A DNA stretch of 64,000 bases from Allosphingosinicella sp. (GTDB taxonomy: Bacteria > Pseudomonadota > Alphaproteobacteria > Sphingomonadales > Sphingomonadaceae), in contig DASWNT010000022.1 in assembly GCA_036399095.1 (NCBI GenBank), positions 9,309 to 73,308 of the forward strand, given 5' to 3'. The position numbers were made by a program, and so were the translations under genes. Below are positions 7,346 to 21,788 of the stretch, in pieces. The first letter of the stretch is position 1. The number at the start of each line of letters is the position of its first letter. The notes under the pieces were generated by a model, which saw only the letters and a list, made by a program, of their open reading frames with translations, was not told where the DNA came from and searched no databases.

Positions 7346-8337
7346 GCGCCGAGCAGCCGCGCGGCGAGCGGCGCATGGTAGGAGAGAACGCCCGAACAGC
7401 CGGCGCGCTTGAACGCCATCAGCGTCTCGAGCACCAGCGCGTCGCGATCCCCCGCGCCCGCCGCGGCGCCGGCTTCGATCATCGCATATTCGCCGGACAC
7501 CTGGTAGGCGAAGACCGGCACTTCGAAGCGGTCCTTCACCCGGCGAACGATGTCGAGATAGGCGAGGCCCGGCTTCACCATCACGTAATCGGCGCCTTCC
7601 GCGACGTCGAGCGCCACTTCGCGAAGCGCCTCCGTGCTGTTCGCCGGGTCCATCTGGTAGGTTTTCTTGTCGCCCTTCAAGAGCCCGCCCGAGCCGACCG
7701 CGTCGCGGAACGGACCGTAGAAGGCGGAGGCGTATTTGGCGGCATAAGCCATGATCTGGACGTTGCAGTGGCCTTCGCGTTCAAGCGCGTCGCGGATCAC
7801 GCCGACCCGGCCATCCATCATGTCGGAAGGAGCGACGATGTCCGCGCCGGCTGCGGCCTGCACCAGCGCCTGCTCTGCAAGAAGGGCGCTGGTTTCGTCG
7901 TTCATCACATAACCGCAGGGGTCGGTGATCCCGTCATGGCCGTCCAGCGTATAAGGGTCGAGCGCGACATCGGTGAGCACGCCGACTTCCGGCGCGGCGT
8001 CCTTCACGGCCTTCACCGCGCGGCAGATGAGGTTGTCCGGGTTGAGCGCTTCGCGGGCGTCGGCGGTGCGCAGCGCGCGCGGCGTGTTTGGGAACAAGGC
8101 GATGCAGGGGATGCCGAGATCGCGCGCTTCGCGCGCACGCTTAGCAAGACCATCAAGGGACCAGCGCGAAATGCCCGGAAGGGTGGCGATCGGCTCCTCC
8201 CCCCCCTGCCCTTCCGCGACGAACAAGGGCCAGATCAGGTCGGACGGGGTGAGCACATGCTCCGCAACCAAGGCGCGGCTCCAAGCGGCGGAGCGGGCGC
8301 GGCGCAGCCGGGTCGCGGGGAAAGCGGGGGACATCAT
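7342..8337 (-). CDS. hemB: porphobilinogen synthase (delta-aminolevulinate dehydratase)
   Basis: The full-length match includes DVALDPYT, DIVAPSDMMDGRV, YASAFYGPFRDA and VMVKPGLAYLDI (active-site Lys). Confidence 0.93.
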   Translation of the reverse strand: MMSPAFPATRLRRARSAAWSRALVAEHVLTPSDLIWPLFVAEGQGGEEPIATLPGISRWSLDGLAKRAREARDLGIPCIALFPNTPRALRTADAREALNPDNLICRAVKAVKDAAPEVGVLTDVALDPYTLDGHDGITDPCGYVMNDETSALLAEQALVQAAAGADIVAPSDMMDGRVGVIRDALEREGHCNVQIMAYAAKYASAFYGPFRDAVGSGGLLKGDKKTYQMDPANSTEALREVALDVAEGADYVMVKPGLAYLDIVRRVKDRFEVPVFAYQVSGEYAMIEAGAAAGAGDRDALVLETLMAFKRAGCSGVLSYHAPLAARLLGA

Positions 8338-8463
8338 GCGCGGCTACTAGCGGCCCCTGCGGTCCCTGCAAAGCGGTGAGGCGGCGGCGCCTGCATAGGC
8401 ACGTGAGGCAGGCACGAACGATTGCGGGACATTTCCGCGCCTGCTGCGTTAGACGCGGTGCCT

Positions 8464-9387
8464 ATGACCACCCAACGCCCCGTTCCACGCGAAGCCGTCT
8501 TGATCGTCAACGCCGCGTCCCGGCGGGGCGAGGCCTTGTTCCGCGACGCCCGCCGTTTGCTCGAAGAAGCCGGCGTGAAGCTGATCGACGCCCACGGCGT
8601 TCGCAACCCGAAGAAGATCAACGGCATCGTCCGCGACGCGATCGCCAAGGGCGCGCCGATGATCATCGTCGGCGGCGGCGACGGCTCGCTTTCCTCCACC
8701 GTCGATTTCGTGGTGGACAAGGATTGCGTCTTCGCCTTGCTTCCGCTCGGCACCGCCAACAGCTTCGCCCGGACGCTCGGCATCCCCCTCGACCTCGAGG
8801 GCGCGGTGAACGTGATCGCCACGGGCGAGCGGCGGCAGATCGATCTTGGCCAAATCAACGGCGATTATTTCGCCAATTGCGCGGCCATGGGCCTGTCGCC
8901 GATGATCGGCGAAGGCGTGCCGCACAAGCTCAAGCGTTATCTCGGCCGCTTCGGCTATCTCCTCTGGGCGATCTGGTGCCTGATCCGCTTCCACGCGTTC
9001 CGGATCACCGTCGACAATGGCGAGACCACCGAAACGATGTGGGCGACGGAAGTGCGCATCGCCAACGGCCGCTTCCACGGCGGCGTCGAGCTGGTCGAGG
9101 ATGCGGAGGTCGACACCGGCCAGATCGTCGTCCAGGTGGTGCTTGGGCGAAGCGTGCTACCGTTGATTTGGAACTGGGTGGGCAGCGTACTCAAGCTGCC
9201 GAAGCGGCAGTCGCCGACGCGCGACTTCCACGGCCGCAAATTCACCGTGGATACGCGGCCGCATCTGCCGATCTCCATCGACGGGGAAGTTACGGCCCGC
9301 ACTCCGGCGACTGCCCAGGTGGCGAGCTGCGCAATCGAAGTGGTGGTGCCTCGGGTGGAGCCGGCTGGCGAAATCCCGGCGGGCTGA
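8464..9387 (+). CDS. diacylglycerol/lipid kinase family protein (YegS/LCB5-like)
   Basis: Motifs IIVGGGDGSLSS and LPLGTANSFARTLG. Start is the ATG at 8464, with an alternative TTG at 8422. Confidence 0.8.
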   Translation: MTTQRPVPREAVLIVNAASRRGEALFRDARRLLEEAGVKLIDAHGVRNPKKINGIVRDAIAKGAPMIIVGGGDGSLSSTVDFVVDKDCVFALLPLGTANSFARTLGIPLDLEGAVNVIATGERRQIDLGQINGDYFANCAAMGLSPMIGEGVPHKLKRYLGRFGYLLWAIWCLIRFHAFRITVDNGETTETMWATEVRIANGRFHGGVELVEDAEVDTGQIVVQVVLGRSVLPLIWNWVGSVLKLPKRQSPTRDFHGRKFTVDTRPHLPISIDGEVTARTPATAQVASCAIEVVVPRVEPAGEIPAG

Positions 9388-9410
9388 CGCACCCAACTCC
9401 GTTCCTAATT

Positions 9411-12035
9411 TCAGCCGAGCCGCGCGAGCGCCGCCCGATATTTATCCGCGTCCGAGGCCTTCTCGGCATGGTCGGCGCGGGCTTTCTCCACTGCTTCCGG
9501 CTTGGCGCGTTCAACGAAGCTTGGGTTGTTCAGGCGCCCGGCAAGGCCGTCGCGCTCCTTTTCCGCCGCTTGCAGCGCCTTTGACAAGCGGGAGCGCTCC
9601 GCTTCGATGTCGATCACGCCTTCGAGCGGCAGGATGAAGGTCGCTTCGTCCACCACCACCTGGGCGGCGCCGCCCGAGGCTTCGGCGAAGCTGACGCTCT
9701 CGATGCGCGCGAGCCGCCTCAGCGCCGCTTCGTTGCGCGCAAGCCGCGCCCCCGTCTGTTCGCCGCCGTCGCGGACGTGGAGGGCGAGCTTGGCGCCCGG
9801 TGGGACATTCAATTCGGTGCGGGCGGCGCGGATGCCGCTCACCAGGCGGATCAGCCAGTCCACTTCCGGCCCGGCCTCCGGATCGAGCGCGCGGGCGTCC
9901 GGCATCGGCCATTTGGCGTGGATCAGGGGATAGGGCCTCTCGCCTAGAGCGTTCCAAAGCTCTTCGGTGATGAAGGGCATGAACGGGTGGAGCATGACCA
10001 AAATCTGGTCCAGCACCCAGCCGGCGACGGCCTTCGTCTCCTCGTCGATCTGCCCCTTGATCAGCTCCAGATACCAGTCGCAGAAGCTGCCCCAGACGAA
10101 ATGGTAGAGGGTGTTGGCGCTTTCGTCGAAGCGCAGTTCGGCGAGCGCGAGGTCGAGCGCCTGCACCGTTTTCACCGTTTCGCCGACGATCCAGCGGTTC
10201 ACCGGGAGCTGCGCCTGCGGCGGCTCAAGCGAGGCGCTCGCGCCGATGCCGTTGGACTGGCAGAAGCGGGCGGCGTTCCACAGCTTGGTCGCGAAATTGC
10301 GGTAGCCTTCGATGCGTTTCTCATCGAGCTTGATGTCGCGGCCCTGGCTTTCCATCGCGGACAGCGTGAAGCGCAACGCGTCGGCACCGAAGCGGTCGAT
10401 CAGGCCGAGCGGATCGACCGTATTTCCCTTCGACTTCGACATCTTGGCGCCCTTGGCGTCCCGCACCAGGCCGTGGAGGTAGAGCGTCTTCCACGGCGCC
10501 TCCCCCATGAAGTGGATGCCCTGCATCGCCATCCTGGCGTCCCAGAAAAAGATGATGTCGAAGCCGGAAATCAGCACGTCGTTGGGGTAATGGCGGCGCA
10601 GCATCTGCGTTTCCTCGGGCCAGCCGAGGGTGCCGAAGGGCCAGAGGGCGGAGGAGAACCAGGTGTCGAGCACGTCGCTGTCGCGGCGCAGGGTTACGCC
10701 TTCGCCGGCCTCCGCCTGCGCTTCCGCTTCGGTTTCGGCGACATAGCATTTGCCGCTTTCGTCGTACCAGGCGGGGATCTGGTGGCCCCACCAGAGCTGT
10801 CGCGAAACGCACCAGGGCTGGATGTTTTCGAGCCAGTTGAACCAGGTTTTCTCCCAGGTCTTGGGCACGACCTTGATCTTGCCGGAGCGCACCGCTTCGA
10901 TCGCCGGCTGGGCGAGCGTGTGTGCATCGACATACCATTGGTCGGTGAGCCAGGGCTCGATCACCACGCCGGAGCGGTCGCCATAGGGCGTCTGGATGAC
11001 TCGGTCCTCGACCCGCTCGAGCAGCCCCTCCGCCTCCAGCCGCTCGACCACGGCCTGGCGGGCCTCGAAGCGGTCGAGGCCGAGCAGATCGGCTGGGATA
11101 AGGCCGTCGGCGGTTTGCACAATCTTGGCATCGGCGCTGAGCATGTTGAGCATGTCGGCGGCCTTGATGCCGGCGCGCTTGCCGACTTCGAAGTCGTTGA
11201 AGTCGTGGCCGGGCGTGATTTTCACCGCGCCGGAGCCGAGTTCCGGGTCGGCATGTTCGTCGGCGACGATAGGGATGAGGCGGCCGGTGATCGGCAGGCG
11301 GATTCGCTTGCCGACAAGCGCCGTGTAGCGCGGATCCTCCGGATGCACGGCAACCGCCATGTCGGCGAGCATCGTCTCGGGCCGGGTGGTTGCGACAAGG
11401 ATGTGGCCGGAGCCGTCCTCCAGCGGGTAGCGCAAGTGCCAGAACTTGCCCTGCACTTCGCGGGTTTCGACTTCGAGGTCGGAGATTGCGGTGCCGAACT
11501 TCGGGTCCCAGTTCACCAGCCGCTTGTCGCGGTAGAGCAGGCCTTCGCGGTGGAGCTGGACGAACACCTTGAGCACGCCGGCGGAGAAGCCTTCGTCCAT
11601 GGTGAAGCGCTCGTTCGCCCAGTCGCACGAGGCGCCGAGGCGGCGGAGCTGGCGGGTGATCTGGCCGCCGGACTGCGCCTTCCACTCCCAGACATGCTCG
11701 ATGAAAGCTTCGCGGCCCATGTCGGTGCGCTTCACGCCCTGGCTTTCCAGGTTGCGCTCCACCACCATCTGCGTGGCGATGCCGGCATGGTCCATGCCGA
11801 CGACCCACAGCGCGTCCTTGCCCTTCAGCCGCGCGTGGCGGACGAGAATGTCCTGGAGCGTGTTGTCGAGCGCGTGGCCGATGTGCAGCGATCCCGTGAC
11901 GTTCGGCGGCGGGATGACGATGGTGAAGGGCTCGGCGTCCGGGCGCTCGGGGCGGAACATGCCCTCCCCTTCCCAGCGGGCATACCAATGCGCCTCGATG
12001 GCGGCGGGATCGAAGGTTTTGGGAAGTTCGGTCAT
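9411..12035 (-). CDS. valS: valine--tRNA ligase
   Basis: 874 aa with HIGH motif [19 protein letters not shown] motif [10 protein letters not shown] and a C-terminal coiled coil. Confidence 0.96.
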
Positions 12036-14877: not shown

Positions 14878-14951
14878 GGCCCGATGGCGGAGTGGTTACG
14901 CAGAGGACTGCAAATCCTTGCACGCCGGTTCGATTCCGGCTCGGGCCTCCA
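14878..14951 (+). tRNA. tRNA-Cys (anticodon GCA), CCA encoded
   Basis: GGCCCGATGGCGGAGTGGTTACGCAGAGGACTGCAAATCCTTGCACGCCGGTTCGATTCCGGCTCGGGCCTCCA. The acceptor stem GGCCCGA/TCGGGCC pairs perfectly, and the anticodon loop is CTGCAAA. Confidence 0.9.
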
Positions 14952-15059: not shown

Positions 15060-17189
15060 ATGGCCGAGTATCAGCTGATCAGCGGCATCGAAGTGGACAC
15101 CCGGCTGCTCCGCTTCCTTGAGGATGAGGCGCTGCCGGGCACCGGAATCGAAGCGCCTGCCTTTTGGTCCGGTTTTTCCGCTTTGCTGCGTGAGCTGACG
15201 CCGGAGAACCGCCGCCTGCTGCGGGAACGGGGGAGGCTGCAGCGGCTAATCGACGGGCGGAATGAGGGGTTAGGCGGCAAGGTGCCCTCCCCTGCCGAGG
15301 AAGAAGAGTTTCTGCGCGAGATCGGCTATCTGGTCGATCCGCCCGCGCCGTTCGCCGTCGGTACGTCCGGCGTCGATCCGGAGGTGGGGACGATTGCCGG
15401 ACCGCAACTGGTGGTTCCGCTCAGCAACGCCCGCTATGCGCTCAACGCCGCCAATGCACGCTGGGGGAGCCTGTACGATGCGCTCTACGGCACGGACGCG
15501 CTTGGGCCGCCGGCGGTGGTCGGCGGCTACGACGAAGCGCGGGGGGCGGAGGCGATCGCCTGGGGGCGGCGCTTTTTGGACGAGGTCGCGCCGCTCACCG
15601 GTGGAAGCCATGCGGACGTGTCCTTCTACCGGATCGAGGGGGGCGCTCTGGTTACCGATCTCGGCGGCCTTGCCGACCCGTCGCTGCTCGCCGGCTGGCG
15701 CGGCGACAACATCCTGCTGCGCCACAACAACCTCCATCTTGAGGTCGTCGTCGACGCCGAACACCCGATCGGCCGCACCGACAAAGCAGGAGTCGCCGAC
15801 ATCCTGCTGGAAAGCGCCGTCACCGCGATCATGGATTGCGAGGATTCGGTCGCGGCGGTGGACGCGGAGGAGAAGGTGGCCGTCTACCGCAACTGGCTCG
15901 GGCTGATGAAGGGGGACCTCCAGGCCCGCTTCACCAAGGACGGCAAGGCGGTTGAACGGCGGCTGGCGGAGGATCGCGAATTCGAGGCGCCGGGCGGCGG
16001 TACGCTGACGCTCAAGGGACGAGCGCTGATGTTCGTGCGCAATGTCGGCCACCTGATGACCAACAAGATGCTCCTAATCGACGGCGAGGAGGTGTATGAA
16101 GGGCTGGCCGACGCGGTGATCACGACATTGTGCGCGCTGCACGACATCAAGGGAACCCGCCGCAACAGCGCCGCCGGGGCGGTCTATATCGTTAAGCCGA
16201 AGATGCACGGGCCGGAGGAAGCCGCGTTCGCGGACCGCCTGTGCAACCGCACGGAAGATCTACTCGGCCTGCCGCGTCATTCGATCAAGATCGGCGTGAT
16301 GGACGAGGAGCGGCGCACGTCCGTCAACCTCGCGGCAACGATCCGGGCGGTGAGCGAGCGGGTGGCGTTCATCAACACCGGCTTCCTGGATCGCACCGGC
16401 GACGAGATCCACACGTCGCTGAAGATCGGTCCGGCGATCCGGAAGATGGAAATGAAGCAGGCGGGGTGGCTCGCCGCGTATGAGGACAACAATGTCGACA
16501 CCGGCCTCGCCTGCGGCTTTGCGGGGCGGGCGCAGATCGGCAAGGGCATGTGGGCGATGCCGGACCGGATGGCGGCCATGCTGAAGGACAAGATCGCTCA
16601 TCCGCGGGCGGGCGCAAGCACCGCGTGGGTGCCGTCGCCGACCGCCGCGACCTTGCACGCCGTCCATTACCACCACGTCGATGTCGCGGGCCGGCAGCGG
16701 GAGCTGGCGGCGCGGGCCCCCAGGCCGGTTGAAGACATGCTCGCCATCCCGATCGCCGTCGCCCCCGCCTGGTCGGCCGGCGAGATCCGCGAAGAGCTGG
16801 AGAACAACCTTCAGGGCATCTTGGGCTACGTCGTGCGCTGGGTCGAGCAAGGCGTCGGCTGTTCCACCGTCCCCGACATTCACGACGTCGGCCTGATGGA
16901 AGATCGCGCCACCTGCCGCATTTCAAGCCAGCATGTCGCCAATTGGCTGCTCCACGGCGTGGTGACCGCCGAAGAGGTCGAGGCGGCGCTGGTTCGAATG
17001 GCGGCGGTGGTGGACCGGCAAAATAACGCCGATCCGAACTATCGGCCAATGGCTCCGGCACCCGAAACAAGCATCCCGTTCAAAGCCGCACGGGCGCTTG
17101 TGCTGGAAGGGGCGGCGCAGCCTTCCGGCTACACCGAGCCCCTTCTCCACGCCCACCGGCTCATGATGAAGAACAAGGCCGGAGCTTAA
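15060..17189 (+). CDS. glcB: malate synthase G
   Basis: 709 aa. The typical GlcB N-terminus is followed by [33 protein letters not shown], the [12 protein letters not shown] motif and [16 protein letters not shown]. Confidence 0.94.
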
Positions 17190-18115
17190 GCGGCCATCCC
17201 CTGCTCGACCCAGCTGCGCCCGGCCCGGACCAGCTGGGCTTCGCGCGCCGCCAGAGCCGCGGCCATGCCGGTGAGGCGCCCAGCCGCTTCTTCGTAAACC
17301 GCAATCCGGCTGTCGATGTCGGGCGCGGCGGCCGCTTTCGCGCGCCAGGCGGCGAAGCGAATCCGGTCGCTCGGGTGGCGAACCGCAAAGTCTTCGACCA
17401 GATCTTGCCCATTGCCGCCGCCGAACACACCGGCGAGGCGCACCAGCGTTTCCAGCGCGGACGGGTTCACCAGGCTCGCCACCCGGTTGGACGCGAGATC
17501 GAAGCGATACTGGTCCTGAAATTCGCTCGCCGGCGTTGCGGCCATGATGTTGAGCGACACGGAAAGGCTGTCCGGCGGAAGCTGGCTGTGGACGTCGAGA
17601 TGCTTGCGGTAGAGCAGCACCTTGCCTTCGGACAGGCAGGAGCGCTCGATGAAGCGCAGGTCCACCTCCTCGCCGGGGACGCCCATCACGCGGTCATAAT
17701 CATATTCGTAATAATCGCTCCAATAGCCGGGGCCGAGATAGCCGACGGTGAGAAAGCTGAAATTATGGTCGTGCGGCACTTCGTAGAAGAAGGGGTCCGG
17801 GCCGCTGTTTGCGTAAACGCTGTCGGATTGCGACGGCCACAGGTTGGCGCGGATCACGAAATCCCGCTGGATATGGAGCAGGATGACCTGCGAGCTATAT
17901 TGGTTGCGCGCGGTCTGGCCCATACAATGCTGCTTCAGTTCCGCGATGGCGAGATCGCCGAGGAAGCGGCGGTTATTGCCGAGCTGGCGCAGCGCCGGGC
18001 CCCATTGGACAAGCCCTTCTTCGTCGCGGGGATCGAAGCGGCCCTGCAGCGTTTCCACCAGATCGGCGAGTTCGATGGCGGACTTGTCCTCGCCGCAGTT
18101 GATGGTCAGGGGCAT
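17186..18115 (-). CDS. uncharacterised protein with cupin-like His motif (309 aa)
   Basis: Coding-like GC3. The start is 1 nt after the upstream stop. Motifs [23 protein letters not shown] and [12 protein letters not shown] suggest an H-x-H...H metal site. I recognise no family. Confidence 0.7.
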
Positions 18116-18116
18116 A

Positions 18117-19112
18117 TCAGTTCACCTCGAATTCGGGCTGCCGCGCCTCGGCGTCGGCGGGGAAGCAAGCTGCAAGCGTTGCGCCGGCGGTGGCGCGGAC
18201 TTCCGGGTGAGGGTCCCCCTCGGCCATGGCCTGGAGGTGCGGCAGCGCGGCTTCGGCATCGAGCGCGAGCAATTCGCGCATCGCCTGCCAGCGGGCGTAG
18301 AAATGCGGGTTGTCCAGCATCTCGATCATTACCGGCACCGCGTCGGCGCGGTCCATGGTGCGAAGCATGGCCAGCATCATCTGGGTCCGGCTGCTGATCT
18401 CGTCGGTGCTGCTTGCGCCGACCAGTTCGAACGTGTCGGAGTCATATTCAACCGTTACCGGCGCACGCTCCACGTTCACCGTCGCCTGGAGGTAGAAGAG
18501 GTCGCCGGTGGCGTGTTCGATGACGAAGCTGTGCTTGCGGCCGTCGATCTCCAGCAGCTCGCCGTCTTCGATGCGGCGGCGTTCCACCATGCGGCAGCGG
18601 CTGGAGGCGGTTGCGGTGAAGCCGGCCTCGATCTGCGGCGCTTCCCAAAAGGAGAAGGTGGCGCCGCCCGAGCGGATGAACTTGTAGAGCGACCGGTGGC
18701 CCGGGAATACGATCGAGCGCGCGCCGTCGCGGCCGAGGCGCTTCGCGGCCAGTGCATCGGCGGGCATCACCGCGGCGAACAGCAGCAAAGCCGGCGTCTC
18801 AACCAGCAGAATCCCGGAGTGGATGGGGCTCGAGAGACTGCGCAGAGCCGGGCGGAAGAAAGGGTCGGTCGCGGCGGCGCCGATCAGGTGGGAGAACAGA
18901 TCGGCGAGACCCTGCTCGTCCGCCATTGCCCGCTCGGCACAGGCGAGCACGTCGGCGGCGCGGGGCTGCGGCAGCGCCTCCAGGCTTTCGCGCAAGCCGC
19001 GAACGAACGGCAGCGCCTTGAGCTCGGCGGAGACCTCGCTGAACAGATCGAGGGTGGCGTTCTGCGCGCGCGGATCGGAGAGCCAGCGGCGCAATTCCTC
19101 TCGTGGCATCAT
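18117..19112 (-). CDS. uncharacterised protein with C-terminal HEAT-like repeats (331 aa from ATG 19112)
   Basis: GAGGA lies 8 nt upstream of ATG 19112, while the TTG at 19130 has no RBS. C-terminal DRADAVPVMIEMLDNPHFYARWQAMRELLALDAEAALPHLQAMAEGDPHPEVRATA is HEAT-like. Confidence 0.7.
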   Translation of the reverse strand: MMPREELRRWLSDPRAQNATLDLFSEVSAELKALPFVRGLRESLEALPQPRAADVLACAERAMADEQGLADLFSHLIGAAATDPFFRPALRSLSSPIHSGILLVETPALLLFAAVMPADALAAKRLGRDGARSIVFPGHRSLYKFIRSGGATFSFWEAPQIEAGFTATASSRCRMVERRRIEDGELLEIDGRKHSFVIEHATGDLFYLQATVNVERAPVTVEYDSDTFELVGASSTDEISSRTQMMLAMLRTMDRADAVPVMIEMLDNPHFYARWQAMRELLALDAEAALPHLQAMAEGDPHPEVRATAGATLAACFPADAEARQPEFEVN

Positions 19113-19133
19113 GATCGTGTTTCCTCGCAACCG

Positions 19134-19161
19134 AAGGGAGAGACCCGAAGGTCCCTCCCCT
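19134..19161 (-). promoter_or_regulatory. 12-bp stem / UUCG tetraloop RNA hairpin between the peptide ORF and downstream genes
   Basis: Minus-sense AGGGGAGGGACC-UUCG-GGUCUCUCCCUU. Its two G-U wobbles would be A-C mismatches in the plus sense. There is no U-tract. It lies 7 nt after the peptide stop. Confidence 0.6.
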
Positions 19162-19168
19162 CTTTGGC

Positions 19169-19297
19169 TCAGCCGGTGATGAGCACGACGATGACGCCGG
19201 CGCAGGCCGCGCCGCCGACTTCGCGCTGCTTGGCGGAGCCGTGGATGCCGACCTTGGTGGCCAGTTCCGGAAGCGTGTTGATGTCAATCTTCTTCAT
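19169..19297 (-). CDS. 42-aa peptide MKKIDINTLPELATKVGIHGSAKQREVGGAACAGVIVVLITG
   Basis: GGAAGGA lies 6 nt upstream of the ATG. 38 of 42 codons end in G/C. It is the first ORF of a tightly spaced three-gene unit. Confidence 0.55.
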   Translation of the reverse strand: MKKIDINTLPELATKVGIHGSAKQREVGGAACAGVIVVLITG

Positions 19298-19436
19298 GGT
19301 CGTTCCTTCCACTGTTTGAAGGAGCGACGACGTTTCGCTTGGCCTGAACCGCACGAAGCTTCGCAGCTCCGGTCATTCAGTCTCGGGCTCTGACCATTCC
19401 TGTCTGAAGAGCATCGCGTAAGTTGTGGATTCAAAA

Positions 19437-19492
19437 GGGGAATTCCACCGGAAAATCCGGGTATGCGGCGGGAAATAGATGTGGAAATTCCC
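19437..19492 (-). promoter_or_regulatory. pair of GGAATTCC-type palindromes forming a long-range inverted repeat
   Basis: The arms are GGGGAATTCCACC (19437-19449) and GTGGAAATTCCC (19481-19492). Read on the minus strand, the second arm is followed by TTTT. The repeat sits 3 nt after the anti-sigma-like stop. Confidence 0.4.
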
Positions 19493-19494
19493 GC

Positions 19495-20112
19495 TCAATC
19501 CTCTCGCTCGCGCTCCGCCTCCAACTCATAACCGATCCGGAGCCGATCTAATTTTTCAATTTCCCGCTGAATCTTTCTTCGGGAGTGCATGCTGAACGCG
19601 CCAACAAGCACCAGAATGGCGATAGTTATTGGTGCGCGGGGGGTGTGCAGCCACACGGCCATCGCTTCCAGGACCGCCTGGGGACCTCCGCCGGTGCGGA
19701 CGCTGACCTTGAAGATGAAGGCAATCGGAACCAGCAGCGGCAGGAGCGCGAGGCCCAAGCTGTTGCGCCGCAAGGCCGCGCGCGCGTGGCGCATGCTGCT
19801 GTCAATGAACGAGGCCCGGTCGGACGTGTTCAGCGTCTTCGCCATCTGGCGAAGCGCCCGCCGTCGCCAGGTCAGCCAGCTGATCCCGATCATCAGCGGA
19901 ACCGCAAGGGTGATCGTCAGCGGACTTGCCGACACGAACGCGCCGGCGATGAAGATGCCGACCAGCGCGATGCCCGACACATATTCGAGAATGTCGAACA
20001 ACCGCCCCCGGCGCCGTGCCTTGCGCGCGTAGGAATCCATCTGTTCCTGCTCGAGCGGATCGGGGCCGTCCTGCCACAATTCGGCGAATTCATCGAAATC
20101 GGGGCGGTTCAT
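19495..20112 (-). CDS. 4-TM membrane protein, putative anti-sigma factor
   Basis: It overlaps the ECF sigma stop by 4 nt. It has an acidic cytoplasmic N-terminus, four hydrophobic helices and a charged C-terminal tail REIEKLDRLRIGYELEAERERED. No zinc (HxxxCxxC) motif. Confidence 0.55.
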   Translation of the reverse strand: MNRPDFDEFAELWQDGPDPLEQEQMDSYARKARRRGRLFDILEYVSGIALVGIFIAGAFVSASPLTITLAVPLMIGISWLTWRRRALRQMAKTLNTSDRASFIDSSMRHARAALRRNSLGLALLPLLVPIAFIFKVSVRTGGGPQAVLEAMAVWLHTPRAPITIAILVLVGAFSMHSRRKIQREIEKLDRLRIGYELEAERERED

Positions 20113-20618
20113 GAGCGCTGCTCCATGATCGACTTGAGCGTTGTCTTGGCGCGTTGACAGCGCAGCATGACGGCGTTGGCCGAAATGCCGAGGATTTGCG
20201 CCATTTCCCCGTAGCTGAAGCCTTCGAAAGCGAGCACGATCGCCTCGCGCTGCGGGATGGGCAGCAACTGGATGGAATCCACCAGCCGCTTCTTCTGGTC
20301 GTTGCGCAGCGCGATCTCGTCCGGCGGCGGGTTGGCTGAGATGAGGTCCACCGGCAGCTCCACCTGGCGCGGCTCGCGGGCGCGTTTGGTGACGTGCGAG
20401 ATGCAGCGCTTCTGGGCGATCGACGCGGCAAAGGTCTTGAGCGACGCGTCGCCGCGATAATTGTCGAGCGCGATCCAGATGGCGAGGAGGATGTCCTGGA
20501 TCAGTTCGCGGCGAAGCGCCGGATCGGCTTCGTAGGACAACGCGATGCGCCCGATGAGCCCTGTGCAGGTGGCGCTTACTTCTCCGAACAGTTGCTCTTT
20601 ACCACGATTACCCGGCAT
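20109..20618 (-). CDS. ECF-type RNA polymerase sigma-70 factor
   Basis: Region 2 (IQDILLAIWIALDNYRGDASLKTF) and region 4 HTH (FEGFSYGEMAQILGISANAVMLRCQRAK). Start is the ATG at 20618, with an alternative at 20660. Confidence 0.85.
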   Translation of the reverse strand: MPGNRGKEQLFGEVSATCTGLIGRIALSYEADPALRRELIQDILLAIWIALDNYRGDASLKTFAASIAQKRCISHVTKRAREPRQVELPVDLISANPPPDEIALRNDQKKRLVDSIQLLPIPQREAIVLAFEGFSYGEMAQILGISANAVMLRCQRAKTTLKSIMEQRS

Positions 20619-20717
20619 GAAGGCGCCGCTGGCCGGGAAGGCCGAAAGGAGAGGCTGCAAGGCCGCAATGGTTGTGCCAAAGTTTCAATGGAAGTTCGCC
20701 GTGGGGGTTTTCAGCTA

Positions 20718-21788
20718 ATGGAACGCAGTAGCCAGAATAGCGGCACAATCGAAGTGCGCAATGCGCATCGCTTCGATGCCCGGCAGCTCGAACAATGGAT
20801 GGAAAGGGAAGTGGAAGGCTTTACCGGTCCGCTTCATGTGGAGCAGTTTCGCGGCGGCCAATCCAATCCGACCTATAAACTCACGACCCCGTCCAGAAGC
20901 TATGTTCTTCGCCGCAAGCCGCCGGGAAAGCTGCTGCCCGGCGCGCATGCCGTGGACCGAGAATATCGCGTAATCAGCGCTCTTGGCGCGCAAGGTTTTC
21001 CGGTCGCGAAAGCCTTCGGCCTTTGCCTGGACGAGGCGGTGATCGGCACCGCTTTCTACATCATGGAAATGGTTGAAGGGCGTATCTTCTGGGAAGCGGA
21101 ACTGCCGCAGATTTCTACTGCGGAGCGGCCGCTTTACTTCGACGCGATGAACGCGGCGATGGCGCAGCTCCACGGCATCGATCCACACGCGGCTGGGCTG
21201 GGCGACTATGGCAAGCCGGGAAATTATTTCGAGCGGCAGATCGGCCGCTGGTCCAAGCAATATCTCGGCGATGTGGAAGCAGGACCGGTGGCGGCGATGG
21301 ACCGGCTGGTGGAATGGCTTCCGGCGAACATTCCTCCCGGGGAGGATGAAGCAAGGATCATCCACGGCGACTTTCGCTGCGACAATATGATCTTCCATCC
21401 CACCGAGCCGAAGGTGCTTGCGGTGCTGGATTGGGAGCTGTCCACGCTCGGCCACCCCCTCGCCGACTTCAGCTACCACCTGATGATGTACCGGATGCCG
21501 GCGGGGATCACGACGGGACTTGCGGGGCTCGATCTGCGGGCACTGAACATCCCGAGCGAAGAGGAATATGTCGCGGCCTACTGCCGCCGCACCGGGCGCG
21601 AGGGAATTCCGCACCTCGATTTCTACATCGCCTTCAACCTGTTCCGCCTGTCGGCGATCGTGCACGGCATCAAGGGACGCCTGGCGCGCGGCACCGCCGC
21701 GTCGGCGCATGCGGACAAAATGGCGGCAAGCCTCGAGGGCCTCGCCGGCCTCGCCTGGGAGCAAGCGAGAAAAGCGGGGGCGCGCTAG
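20718..21788 (+). CDS. phosphotransferase (APH/choline-kinase-like) family protein
   Basis: Motifs QFRGGQSNPTYKL, IIHGDFRCDNMIF (HxDxxxxN) and VLDWELSTLGHP. Confidence 0.8.
   Translation: MERSSQNSGTIEVRNAHRFDARQLEQWMEREVEGFTGPLHVEQFRGGQSNPTYKLTTPSRSYVLRRKPPGKLLPGAHAVDREYRVISALGAQGFPVAKAFGLCLDEAVIGTAFYIMEMVEGRIFWEAELPQISTAERPLYFDAMNAAMAQLHGIDPHAAGLGDYGKPGNYFERQIGRWSKQYLGDVEAGPVAAMDRLVEWLPANIPPGEDEARIIHGDFRCDNMIFHPTEPKVLAVLDWELSTLGHPLADFSYHLMMYRMPAGITTGLAGLDLRALNIPSEEEYVAAYCRRTGREGIPHLDFYIAFNLFRLSAIVHGIKGRLARGTAASAHADKMAASLEGLAGLAWEQARKAGAR

Follow-up and report, generated by a model that had tools for sequence, protein, structure and literature searches.

What could the gene for a very small peptide be doing directly upstream of two large protein genes, in a block that opens with a sigma factor gene? 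This question is raised by five genes on the minus strand (positions 17186-20660) of a 64,000-nucleotide stretch of DNA from Allosphingosinicella sp. (GenBank assembly GCA_036399095.1, contig DASWNT010000022.1, positions 9,309 to 73,308), which is referred to here as the window. The source is a metagenome-assembled genome, and identical copies of the locus are found on contigs from JGI and ENA, the longest of which measures 939 kb. An initial annotation, made from the sequence letters, listed the block as a candidate undescribed five-gene system: an extracytoplasmic function (ECF) sigma factor, a membrane protein, a 42-amino-acid (aa) peptide, a 331-aa protein with HEAT-like repeats and a 309-aa protein with a cupin-like motif. 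Re-examination of the sequence bore out the five genes, their spacings and the hairpin between the peptide gene and the 331-aa gene. The analysis described below points to the peptide and the two large proteins as the conserved unit and suggests that they may form a pathway similar to those of the peptides that ribosomes make and that are modified after translation (RiPPs), with a new class-defining enzyme pair, a reading for which the chances are about evenly balanced. The system does appear to be undescribed: no curated family (Pfam, NCBIfam) covers the peptide, the 309-aa protein or the membrane protein, the 331-aa protein matches HEAT_2 only, and full-text literature searches found no paper on this cassette.

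The conserved unit of three genes

The peptide is encoded by an open reading frame (ORF) at 19169..19297 on the minus strand (product MKKIDINTLPELATKVGIHGSAKQREVGGAACAGVIVVLITG), which is preceded by a GGAAGGA ribosome-binding site. It is followed on the same strand by the 331-aa partner gene (18117..19112) and the 309-aa cupin gene (17186..18115), the latter starting 1 nt past the stop codon of the former. An exhaustive profile search (E<=1e-3) places the 309-aa protein in a family of 893 clusters at 50% identity. These clusters represent many clades that are 30-45% identical to the window protein, and their amino-acid compositions span low-GC to high-GC organisms. A relative is present in at least 530 loci among the GTDB species representatives; the best 80 of these, nearly all from Sphingomonadales, were examined as genome loci, together with a distant set of about 90 metagenome loci that were located via single representatives and a metagenome scan.

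The peptide-partner-cupin order is intact in all 80 genome loci with enough flank. In the roughly 90 distant loci and on a plasmid of Alteromonas, the trio is likewise intact where enough flank was fetched, and in all distant loci with sequence upstream of the cupin, the end of the partner homolog lies no more than a few bases from the start of the cupin. Because the same order is found in every one of about 170 related loci with enough flank, the arrangement is far beyond chance. From these comparisons, the conserved unit is judged to consist of three genes, those for the 42-aa peptide and for the 331-aa and 309-aa proteins. The five-gene system of the initial annotation was thus upheld for these three ORFs, which always occur together where the flank suffices, but not for the sigma factor and the membrane protein, which are a clade-specific addition. 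The cupin gene occurs once in the window and holds a fixed chromosomal position across many genera, between an APH-family kinase gene and a gene for malate synthase G or superoxide dismutase (SOD). The NCBI name of the 309-aa family is 'transposase', which has spread over members from cultured Sphingomonas (WP_135084408.1, WP_135962886.1 and WP_100281013.1) and from metagenome-assembled genomes.

Fold, paralogy and putative metal site of the two large proteins

The two large proteins could not be assigned in the initial annotation, a point that is corrected here. AlphaFold2 (AF2) models built on homolog alignments reached a predicted local distance difference test score (pLDDT) of 90 for the 309-aa protein and 87 for the 331-aa protein. 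Both models have the same plan, consisting of a helical N-terminal domain, a beta barrel of 10-12 strands and a helical-repeat C-terminus. When searched against the PDB with Foldseek, the 309-aa model gave 4tlf, 8vni, CDO and PCO4 as its best matches (E 1e-7 to 1e-5), and the best matches of the 331-aa model were also thiol dioxygenases (E 3e-6). For both proteins these best matches include the 3-mercaptopropionate dioxygenase of P. aeruginosa and A. vinelandii, mercaptosuccinate dioxygenase and cysteine dioxygenase. Dozens of cupin matches at a Foldseek probability of 1.0 place the barrel in the cupin superfamily. Both large proteins are predicted by these models to have a thiol-dioxygenase-like cupin fold, in agreement with the cupin-like motif first noticed in the 309-aa protein (PHDHNF and HLDVH).

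In the curated families, the 309-aa protein has no Pfam or NCBIfam match, and the sole match of the 331-aa protein is to Pfam HEAT_2 (37.9 bits against a cut-off of 27.7, residues 245-314). At the C-terminus of the cupin, only a weak HEAT match was observed, in the Alteromonas homolog (E 8e-5). The two proteins are full-length paralogs: broad alignments of the two families were matched by hhalign with a probability of 99.0% (E 6e-18, 276 columns; reversed control 0.7%). Two narrow sphingomonad alignments gave no paralogy signal (probability 2%).

In the 309-aa family, H115, H117 and H176 are invariant in 139 of 139 representatives (50% identity). The same representatives also all share R89, W93, G128, G130 and Y131, and nearly all share D174, Q178, N189 and Q202. 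The HxH is not followed by Glu, and HxH...H without Glu is the pattern of the three-His thiol dioxygenases, of which the triad of CDO has been described (PMC10989515). The 309-aa protein is presumed to be the catalytic subunit, with a putative three-His metal site. In the barrel of the 331-aa family no invariant His was found. Its gene always lies directly upstream of the cupin gene across loci with flank. Because three His are invariant in the one family and none is conserved in the barrel of the other, the pair is apparently made up of an active cupin and a degenerate paralog without metal ligands.

One member of the cupin family deviates in its architecture. In locus L088 (1041-3746, P0256), a 901-aa protein has the cupin fused to TPR-S and class III nucleotide cyclase domains (Guanylate_cyc, weak match), and the usual partner gene is still located directly upstream.

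The peptide and the hairpin behind its gene

The peptide has a conserved, leader-like N-terminus, I-D-I..L-P-E-L.T.V-G.H-G-S.K-Q.E-V-G-G, continuing as EVGGxxC into a variable hydrophobic tail. Summed over 28 aligned codons from 79 loci, the entropy of codon positions 1, 2 and 3 is 19.9, 16.1 and 36.3, respectively, so that third positions exceed the other two about twofold. This pattern points to a real gene under purifying selection, and the amino-acid conservation that the initial annotation required of the small ORF is thus observed. T-18, G-12, V-5 and the Cys are invariant in the 79 loci; this Cys, three residues past GG, is invariant in the sphingomonad clade. The peptide has no Pfam or NCBIfam match, and RefSeq already annotates the homolog of Sphingomonas parva as a hypothetical protein (WP_263854055.1).

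Most distant loci also have a small upstream ORF, the product of which has an acidic leader, (D/E)-L-(D/E/P)-x-x-(V/I)...G, and a C-terminus that varies and is mostly hydrophobic. A core Cys recurs in some of them, as GGLAC in locus L090 and as VGAAC on the Alteromonas plasmid. The combination known from RiPP loci, a short precursor with a conserved leader and a variable core beside a presumed modifying enzyme, is therefore present, with universal adjacency, and the initially noted likeness to a peptide-modification locus is borne out. Tandem precursor genes, a hallmark of RiPPs, are rare and were observed in one locus (L005), which has two tandem peptide genes with different cores. In L060 (Sphingomonas sp. 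DG1-23) and L061 (S. gei), the cassette is directly followed, at about 7700-9860, by another complete one with genes for a Cys-less peptide, a partner and a cupin, after which comes an ABC transporter gene.

Between the peptide and partner genes, a stem-loop with a 13-bp perfect stem and a UUCG loop is located at 19133..19162 (minus strand). It has a centroid energy of -25 kcal/mol, and none of 200 shuffled sequences folded equally well. In about 70 of 77 loci, a strong GC-rich hairpin comes after the stop codon of the peptide, with a sequence that differs between loci. Because many of them precede a T tract, these recurring hairpins look like intrinsic terminators, whereas the window hairpin has no T tract and was not called by the terminator scan. 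Lantibiotic operons usually rely on a terminator behind the precursor gene to hold the precursor transcript above the enzyme transcripts.

Transporters beside the trio

No RiPP enzyme, protease or exporter had been recognized around the block in the initial annotation. This is correct within the 64-kb window, but it does not extend to the relatives, some of which have genes of the leader-peptidase and exporter type (C39-peptidase ABC with HlyD, MacB-type, type I secretion system (T1SS)-type ABC and ABC-2). In locus L085, genes for a Peptidase_C39 ABC transporter and an HlyD-family protein are divergent from the adjoining trio; this is the only locus in which a peptidase-containing ATP-binding cassette transporter (PCAT) was found. 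A MacB-type permease is present in 11 distant loci, several of which also have HlyD and Yip1 genes. In nine sphingomonad genome loci there is a T1SS-type ABC transporter, accompanied by HlyD in seven of them and by an outer-membrane factor in six.

The most complete example is plasmid pASTE61-200 of Alteromonas stellipolaris LMG 21861, where one co-directional block holds both the trio and transporters, in the order Yip1, HlyD, MacB ATPase, MacB permease, two small ORFs, partner, cupin, ABC ATPase and ABC-2 permease. The cupin of this plasmid is 48% identical to the window protein. By analogy, the block is laid out like a gene cluster for a bacteriocin or RiPP that includes transporters for export and of the immunity type.

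The sigma factor, the membrane protein and the upstream region

The sigma factor gene (20109..20618, minus strand) encodes 169 aa from the ATG. The initial annotation was right about the ORF but placed the end of the gene at 20660, which is an upstream TTG, whereas gene callers take the ATG at 20618. The product matches PF04542 Sigma70_r2 (E 1.8e-10), PF08281 Sigma70_r4_2 (E 1.5e-11) and TIGR02937 (76 bits, cut-off 42.9). It contains regions 2 and 4 only, which places it in group 4 (ECF), and no NCBIfam equivalog model reached its cut-off. Its stop codon is overlapped by 4 nt by the gene of the 205-aa multi-pass membrane protein (19495..20112, minus strand), in agreement with the coupling noted initially.

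The membrane protein has no Pfam or NCBIfam match above cut-off and no recognizable anti-sigma domain, and its homologs are all annotated as hypothetical. It contains no Cys and therefore no zinc motif; the absence of such a motif had been noted initially. Its hydropathy profile shows three clear hydrophobic segments and one borderline segment. Features shared across 58 homologs are a cytoplasmic stretch at the N-terminus (D..LxxLW..RRR), hydrophobic segments in two pairs, a cytoplasmic loop of basic character and an amphipathic helix at the C-terminus (EL.RL..LR..Y..E). The sigma and membrane-protein genes are present or absent jointly across loci, and from this co-inheritance and its position the membrane protein is a candidate anti-sigma factor.

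This pair adjoins the trio in 59 of 81 genome loci. Around 16 loci without it have the same chromosomal position, directly after a divergent APH-family kinase gene, and the 'distant' loci that have it are close relatives only (cupin E<1e-128), the truly distant loci all being without. Given its absence from these sphingomonad loci of the same synteny and from every truly distant locus, the sigma pair is a clade-specific accessory, presumably a regulator, and not a defining part of the cassette.

Between the membrane-protein gene and the peptide gene lies a spacer of 197 nt (19298-19494, minus strand), which contains the palindromes noted initially. At 19379..19404 (minus strand), it holds a bipartite candidate ECF-type promoter, GACAGG-N-GAGACT, reading GACAGGAATGGTCAGAGCCCGAGACT. 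The motif occurs once in 64 kb, against 0.01 expected. Of the 42 loci with the sigma subfamily of the window, 32 have it upstream of the peptide in the form [CA]GA[CA]A[GT]-N17-GACT. A second sigma subfamily (46-52% identity, 14 loci) has this motif in none of the 14 loci and a different one, TTAGCAAAGTxTCAA..., in 12 of them. This co-variation of motif and sigma subfamily agrees with sigma-specific promoters but is confounded with phylogeny. Two results count against the sigma step: 17 of the 19 loci without an adjacent sigma gene still have the bipartite motif before the peptide gene, and the motif is absent upstream of the sigma genes themselves, where auto-regulation was looked for. Because of these two results, control of the peptide operon by the sigma factor can only be called plausible. 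Upstream of the sigma gene, many loci have another element, TTGATC-N17-CACTAA.

The spacer also contains two GGAATTCC-type palindromes, 45 bp apart, and two TCCACA(A/T)CT boxes (19421..19491, minus strand). The TCCACAACTTA box is conserved in the closest relatives of the window, and the palindromes and boxes are conserved in the nearest relatives only; they may be a putative binding region for a further regulator. In 18 related loci (L023, L025, L027, L031, L034, L036, L045-L047, L050, L052, L053, L057, L059, L066, L072, L082 and L084), a different element is observed in the 5'-untranslated region, about 45-60 nt upstream of the peptide ATG. This conserved hairpin, CGG(C/T)T-TTTGGCC(G/A)-A(G/A)CCG, has an invariant loop and a compensatory C-G to T-A change in the stem, is missing from the window's own clade, and could act as an RNA regulator or as the binding site of a protein.

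A proposed pathway for peptide modification

The trio is proposed to be a leader-guided, O2-dependent peptide-modification pathway, RiPP- or bacteriocin-like, that is built on a pair of an active and an inactive cupin; we hold this reading about as probable as all others combined. In this pathway, the 42-aa product would be the precursor, of which the conserved N-terminal part would serve as the recognition leader and the variable hydrophobic C-terminal part as the core. The 331-aa and 309-aa proteins, as ancient paralogs, would probably form a heterodimer that binds the leader. The 331-aa subunit, with its metal ligands lost, would be the peptide-binding scaffold, and the 309-aa subunit would oxidize the core at its putative three-His thiol-dioxygenase-type site, presumably with O2 and a bound metal ion, probably iron. 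In the Sphingomonadales clade, the likeliest target would be the invariant Cys three residues past GG. The hairpin behind the peptide gene would keep the peptide mRNA above the enzyme mRNA. Leader removal and export may be performed in some lineages by the linked C39-peptidase ABC, MacB-type or T1SS-type transporters; in the window genome, processing and export could be carried out by unlinked functions, or the product may stay in the membrane of the producer. The ECF sigma factor and the co-translated membrane protein would have been recruited in the window lineage, where they would probably activate the cassette at the bipartite promoter, which precedes the start codon of the peptide by about 85-110 nt.

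A more specific version can be put forward tentatively, as one that we would sooner expect to fail than to hold. The cassette would then define a new, widespread class of ribosomal peptides, in which the sole class-defining enzyme would be a thiol-dioxygenase-like cupin heterodimer, active in one subunit and inactive in the other, that binds the leader and oxidizes the hydrophobic core. In Sphingomonadales, this would convert the Cys to a sulfinate or a further-rearranged product, making the pair a bacterial, leader-guided counterpart of PCO and ADO.

Several observations weigh against the proposed pathway. About half of the distant peptides have no core cysteine, and therefore thiol oxidation cannot be the general chemistry. 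The core is short and very hydrophobic, and a membrane anchor would be an equally good reading of it. A tblastn search of the 64-kb window, in which a control query was found, detected no ABC transporter of the exporter type and no C39 peptidase, HlyD or MacB, and most loci have no protease or exporter nearby. The predicted kinship to thiol dioxygenases lies at the fold level only: there is no Pfam CDO_I or PCO_ADO match even at E<=1, the family profile gave noise only and no matching chain against PDB sequences, and hhalign against a manually entered rat CDO sequence was negative (probability 0.1%). In addition, the cyclase fusion in L088 hints at a signaling output in some lineages.

The main alternative, though an unlikely one, is that the block is a signaling or sensing module. 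The peptide would be tail-anchored and its conserved, cytoplasmic N-terminus would dock the cupin pair at the membrane, the cupin would sense O2, redox state or metal, perhaps by oxidizing an interface Cys, and the membrane protein with four transmembrane segments would read the state of the peptide in the membrane and free the ECF sigma factor. In many peptides, the hydrophobic C-terminus is indeed near transmembrane length, but the cores of several clades have only 6-8 hydrophobic residues, which is too short for a membrane anchor. The membrane protein is almost without periplasmic loops, and therefore the signal would come from the membrane or the cytoplasm; most of the family, however, lacks the sigma pair. 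A protease or exporter is missing from most loci, which favors such a module, but the dedicated exporters, C39 peptidase and ABC-2 transporter of the relatives are then hard to explain. Besides the cyclase fusion, HAMP-GGDEF-EAL genes adjoin the cassette in 15 distant loci; these are convergent and belong to one clade and therefore may be mere synteny. PCO4 is among the fold matches of the 309-aa protein, and the eukaryotic thiol dioxygenases PCO and ADO are oxygen sensors that work on protein cysteines. The terminator-like hairpin behind the peptide gene is easier to reconcile with a substrate made in surplus than with a subunit made in stoichiometric amounts.

Another explanation is that the 309-aa protein is an ordinary small-molecule thiol dioxygenase, acting for example on cysteine, 3-mercaptopropionate or mercaptosuccinate, with the 331-aa protein as regulatory subunit, and that the small ORF is an unrelated membrane protein co-transcribed by chance. 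Such enzymes are the best fold matches, and HxH...H is present. This explanation is nevertheless quite improbable because the three-gene linkage is strict: the genes co-occur over very distant lineages and the leader motif of the peptide is conserved. Moreover, at the sequence level the protein is not a member of CDO_I or PCO_ADO, it has SVSLN in place of the S-x-H-x-Y of CDO (a comparison of motifs by eye and not by structural alignment), it carries extra N-terminal helical and C-terminal HEAT-like domains, and the operon of relatives also holds exporters.

Finally, the reading of the 309-aa protein as a transposase (the RefSeq label) and of the block as part of a mobile element, which draws on the database name and on one remote, shorter homolog near a Tn3 transposase on a Vibrio plasmid, has practically no probability and was rejected on fold and context, given the cupin fold, the fixed chromosomal position over many genera, the single copy in the window and the absence of any transposase, integrase or nuclease domain (DDE, HUH, serine/tyrosine recombinase) in Pfam and NCBIfam searches.

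Comparison with known systems

The closest structural relatives of the cassette cupin are the thiol dioxygenases CDO, 3-mercaptopropionate dioxygenase (4TLF/6XB9), mercaptosuccinate dioxygenase (8VNI), PCO4 (7CHJ) and ADO, with which it shares the predicted cupin barrel and, as a sequence motif, the HxH...H without Glu. It differs from them in having no detectable sequence similarity, in about 100 extra N-terminal helical and about 90 extra C-terminal HEAT-like residues, and in the apparent lack of the Ser-His-Tyr motif on inspection of the sequence. The cassette also adds an obligatory degenerate paralog directly upstream and an obligatory small peptide gene. PCO and ADO work on cysteine within polypeptides, whereas the peptides of many cassette members are Cys-less.

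In gene order, with precursor, enzyme and partner, the cassette resembles the MNIO/DUF692 RiPP systems (MbnBC, TglHI, BufBC; PbsC/D, PMC12257519), which pair a metallo-oxidase with a non-catalytic partner. In those systems, O2-dependent iron chemistry acts on a leader-guided peptide, often at Cys, and similar chemistry is proposed for the cassette. The enzyme folds are unrelated, as MNIO enzymes are TIM barrels with multinuclear iron and the cassette enzyme would be a mononuclear cupin. In addition, the partner of the cassette enzyme is its paralog, and the cassette precursors have no signal peptide.

The double-glycine-leader bacteriocins with PCATs (PMC6363468) are similar in their short acidic or hydrophobic leader that ends in small residues. 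The corresponding leader ends are HG/S and EVGG in the window peptide and SAG/A in L085, where the C39-ABC and HlyD genes lie beside the trio. Unlike in these bacteriocins, the cassette leader is a poor fit to the L-12/E-8/L-7/I-4/GG spacing, a PCAT is found at one locus only, and two large cytoplasmic proteins are always present.

Cupin-fold oxygenases are already known as RiPP tailoring enzymes, namely PbsQ (PMC12257519) and TcaO (bioRxiv 10.64898/2026.01.07.698260). Like the cassette cupin is predicted to be, these are cupin-fold oxygenases, and they modify ribosomal peptides. However, they are JmjC/pfam08007-type accessories inside clusters that are defined by other enzymes. In the cassette, the cupin pair resembles thiol dioxygenases and would be class-defining because it is the only enzyme candidate.

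The sigma pair is similar to known pairs of ECF sigma factors and membrane anti-sigma factors in having regions 2 and 4 only, a 4-nt overlap and an adjoining candidate target operon with a bipartite motif. It differs in that the membrane protein has no recognizable anti-sigma domain, zinc motif or family and that the motif is not repeated upstream of the sigma gene, where it would allow auto-regulation. In Caulobacter, bufferin operons are under an ECF sigma factor with a multi-pass membrane anti-sigma factor (SigF/NrsF).

Other features of the locus

At its downstream end, the 309-aa gene overlaps the convergent malate synthase G gene (15060-17189, plus strand) by 4 nt at the stop regions (17186-17189), and no terminator lies between the two. 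A tRNA-Cys (GCA) gene at 14878-14951, between the genes for protein-isoaspartate methyltransferase and malate synthase G, is probably unrelated to the cassette. An Rfam scan of 16900-21000 gave a single sub-threshold snoRNA match, inside the membrane-protein gene. No sigma-70 consensus promoter was found in 17000-20900, and the sole terminator-like site is outside the block, at 17028-17046. A PADLOC scan for defense systems gave no match.

In about 22 sphingomonad loci (including L011, L012, L015, L023, L031, L034, L041, L042, L044-L047, L049, L051, L052, L059, L072, L082 and L084), an Fe/Mn SOD gene lies on the same strand, 0.7-4 kb downstream of the cupin, often with a TPR lipoprotein gene before it. 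This neighbor is treated as shared synteny and not as functional evidence; a link to oxidative chemistry is possible. On plasmid p1-ED002 of Vibrio sp. ED002 (L175, 4300-5856), a remote and shorter pair of 243 aa and 225 aa is accompanied by a 59-aa ORF. The homolog is 24.5% identical over residues 6-206 of the 309-aa query and is located between Tn3 transposase/recombinase and restriction-modification genes. This pair may be a reduced, mobile version of the cassette.

Implications

The cassette recurs in hundreds of bacterial lineages, from soil, freshwater and the sea and with low to high GC contents, and cultured strains that carry it include Sphingomonas parva, S. gei, S. psychrotolerans, Sphingosinicella terrae and Alteromonas stellipolaris LMG 21861. 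If the proposed pathway is correct, a family of about 900 clusters that is now labeled 'transposase', 'HEAT repeat protein' or 'hypothetical' would become a peptide-modifying oxygenase system, and a systematic RefSeq annotation error would be corrected. It would add a new enzyme fold for leader-guided peptide chemistry and a further case of a pair of active enzyme and pseudo-enzyme paralogs. It could also be the first bacterial, peptide-directed relative of the eukaryotic oxygen-sensing cysteine dioxygenases.

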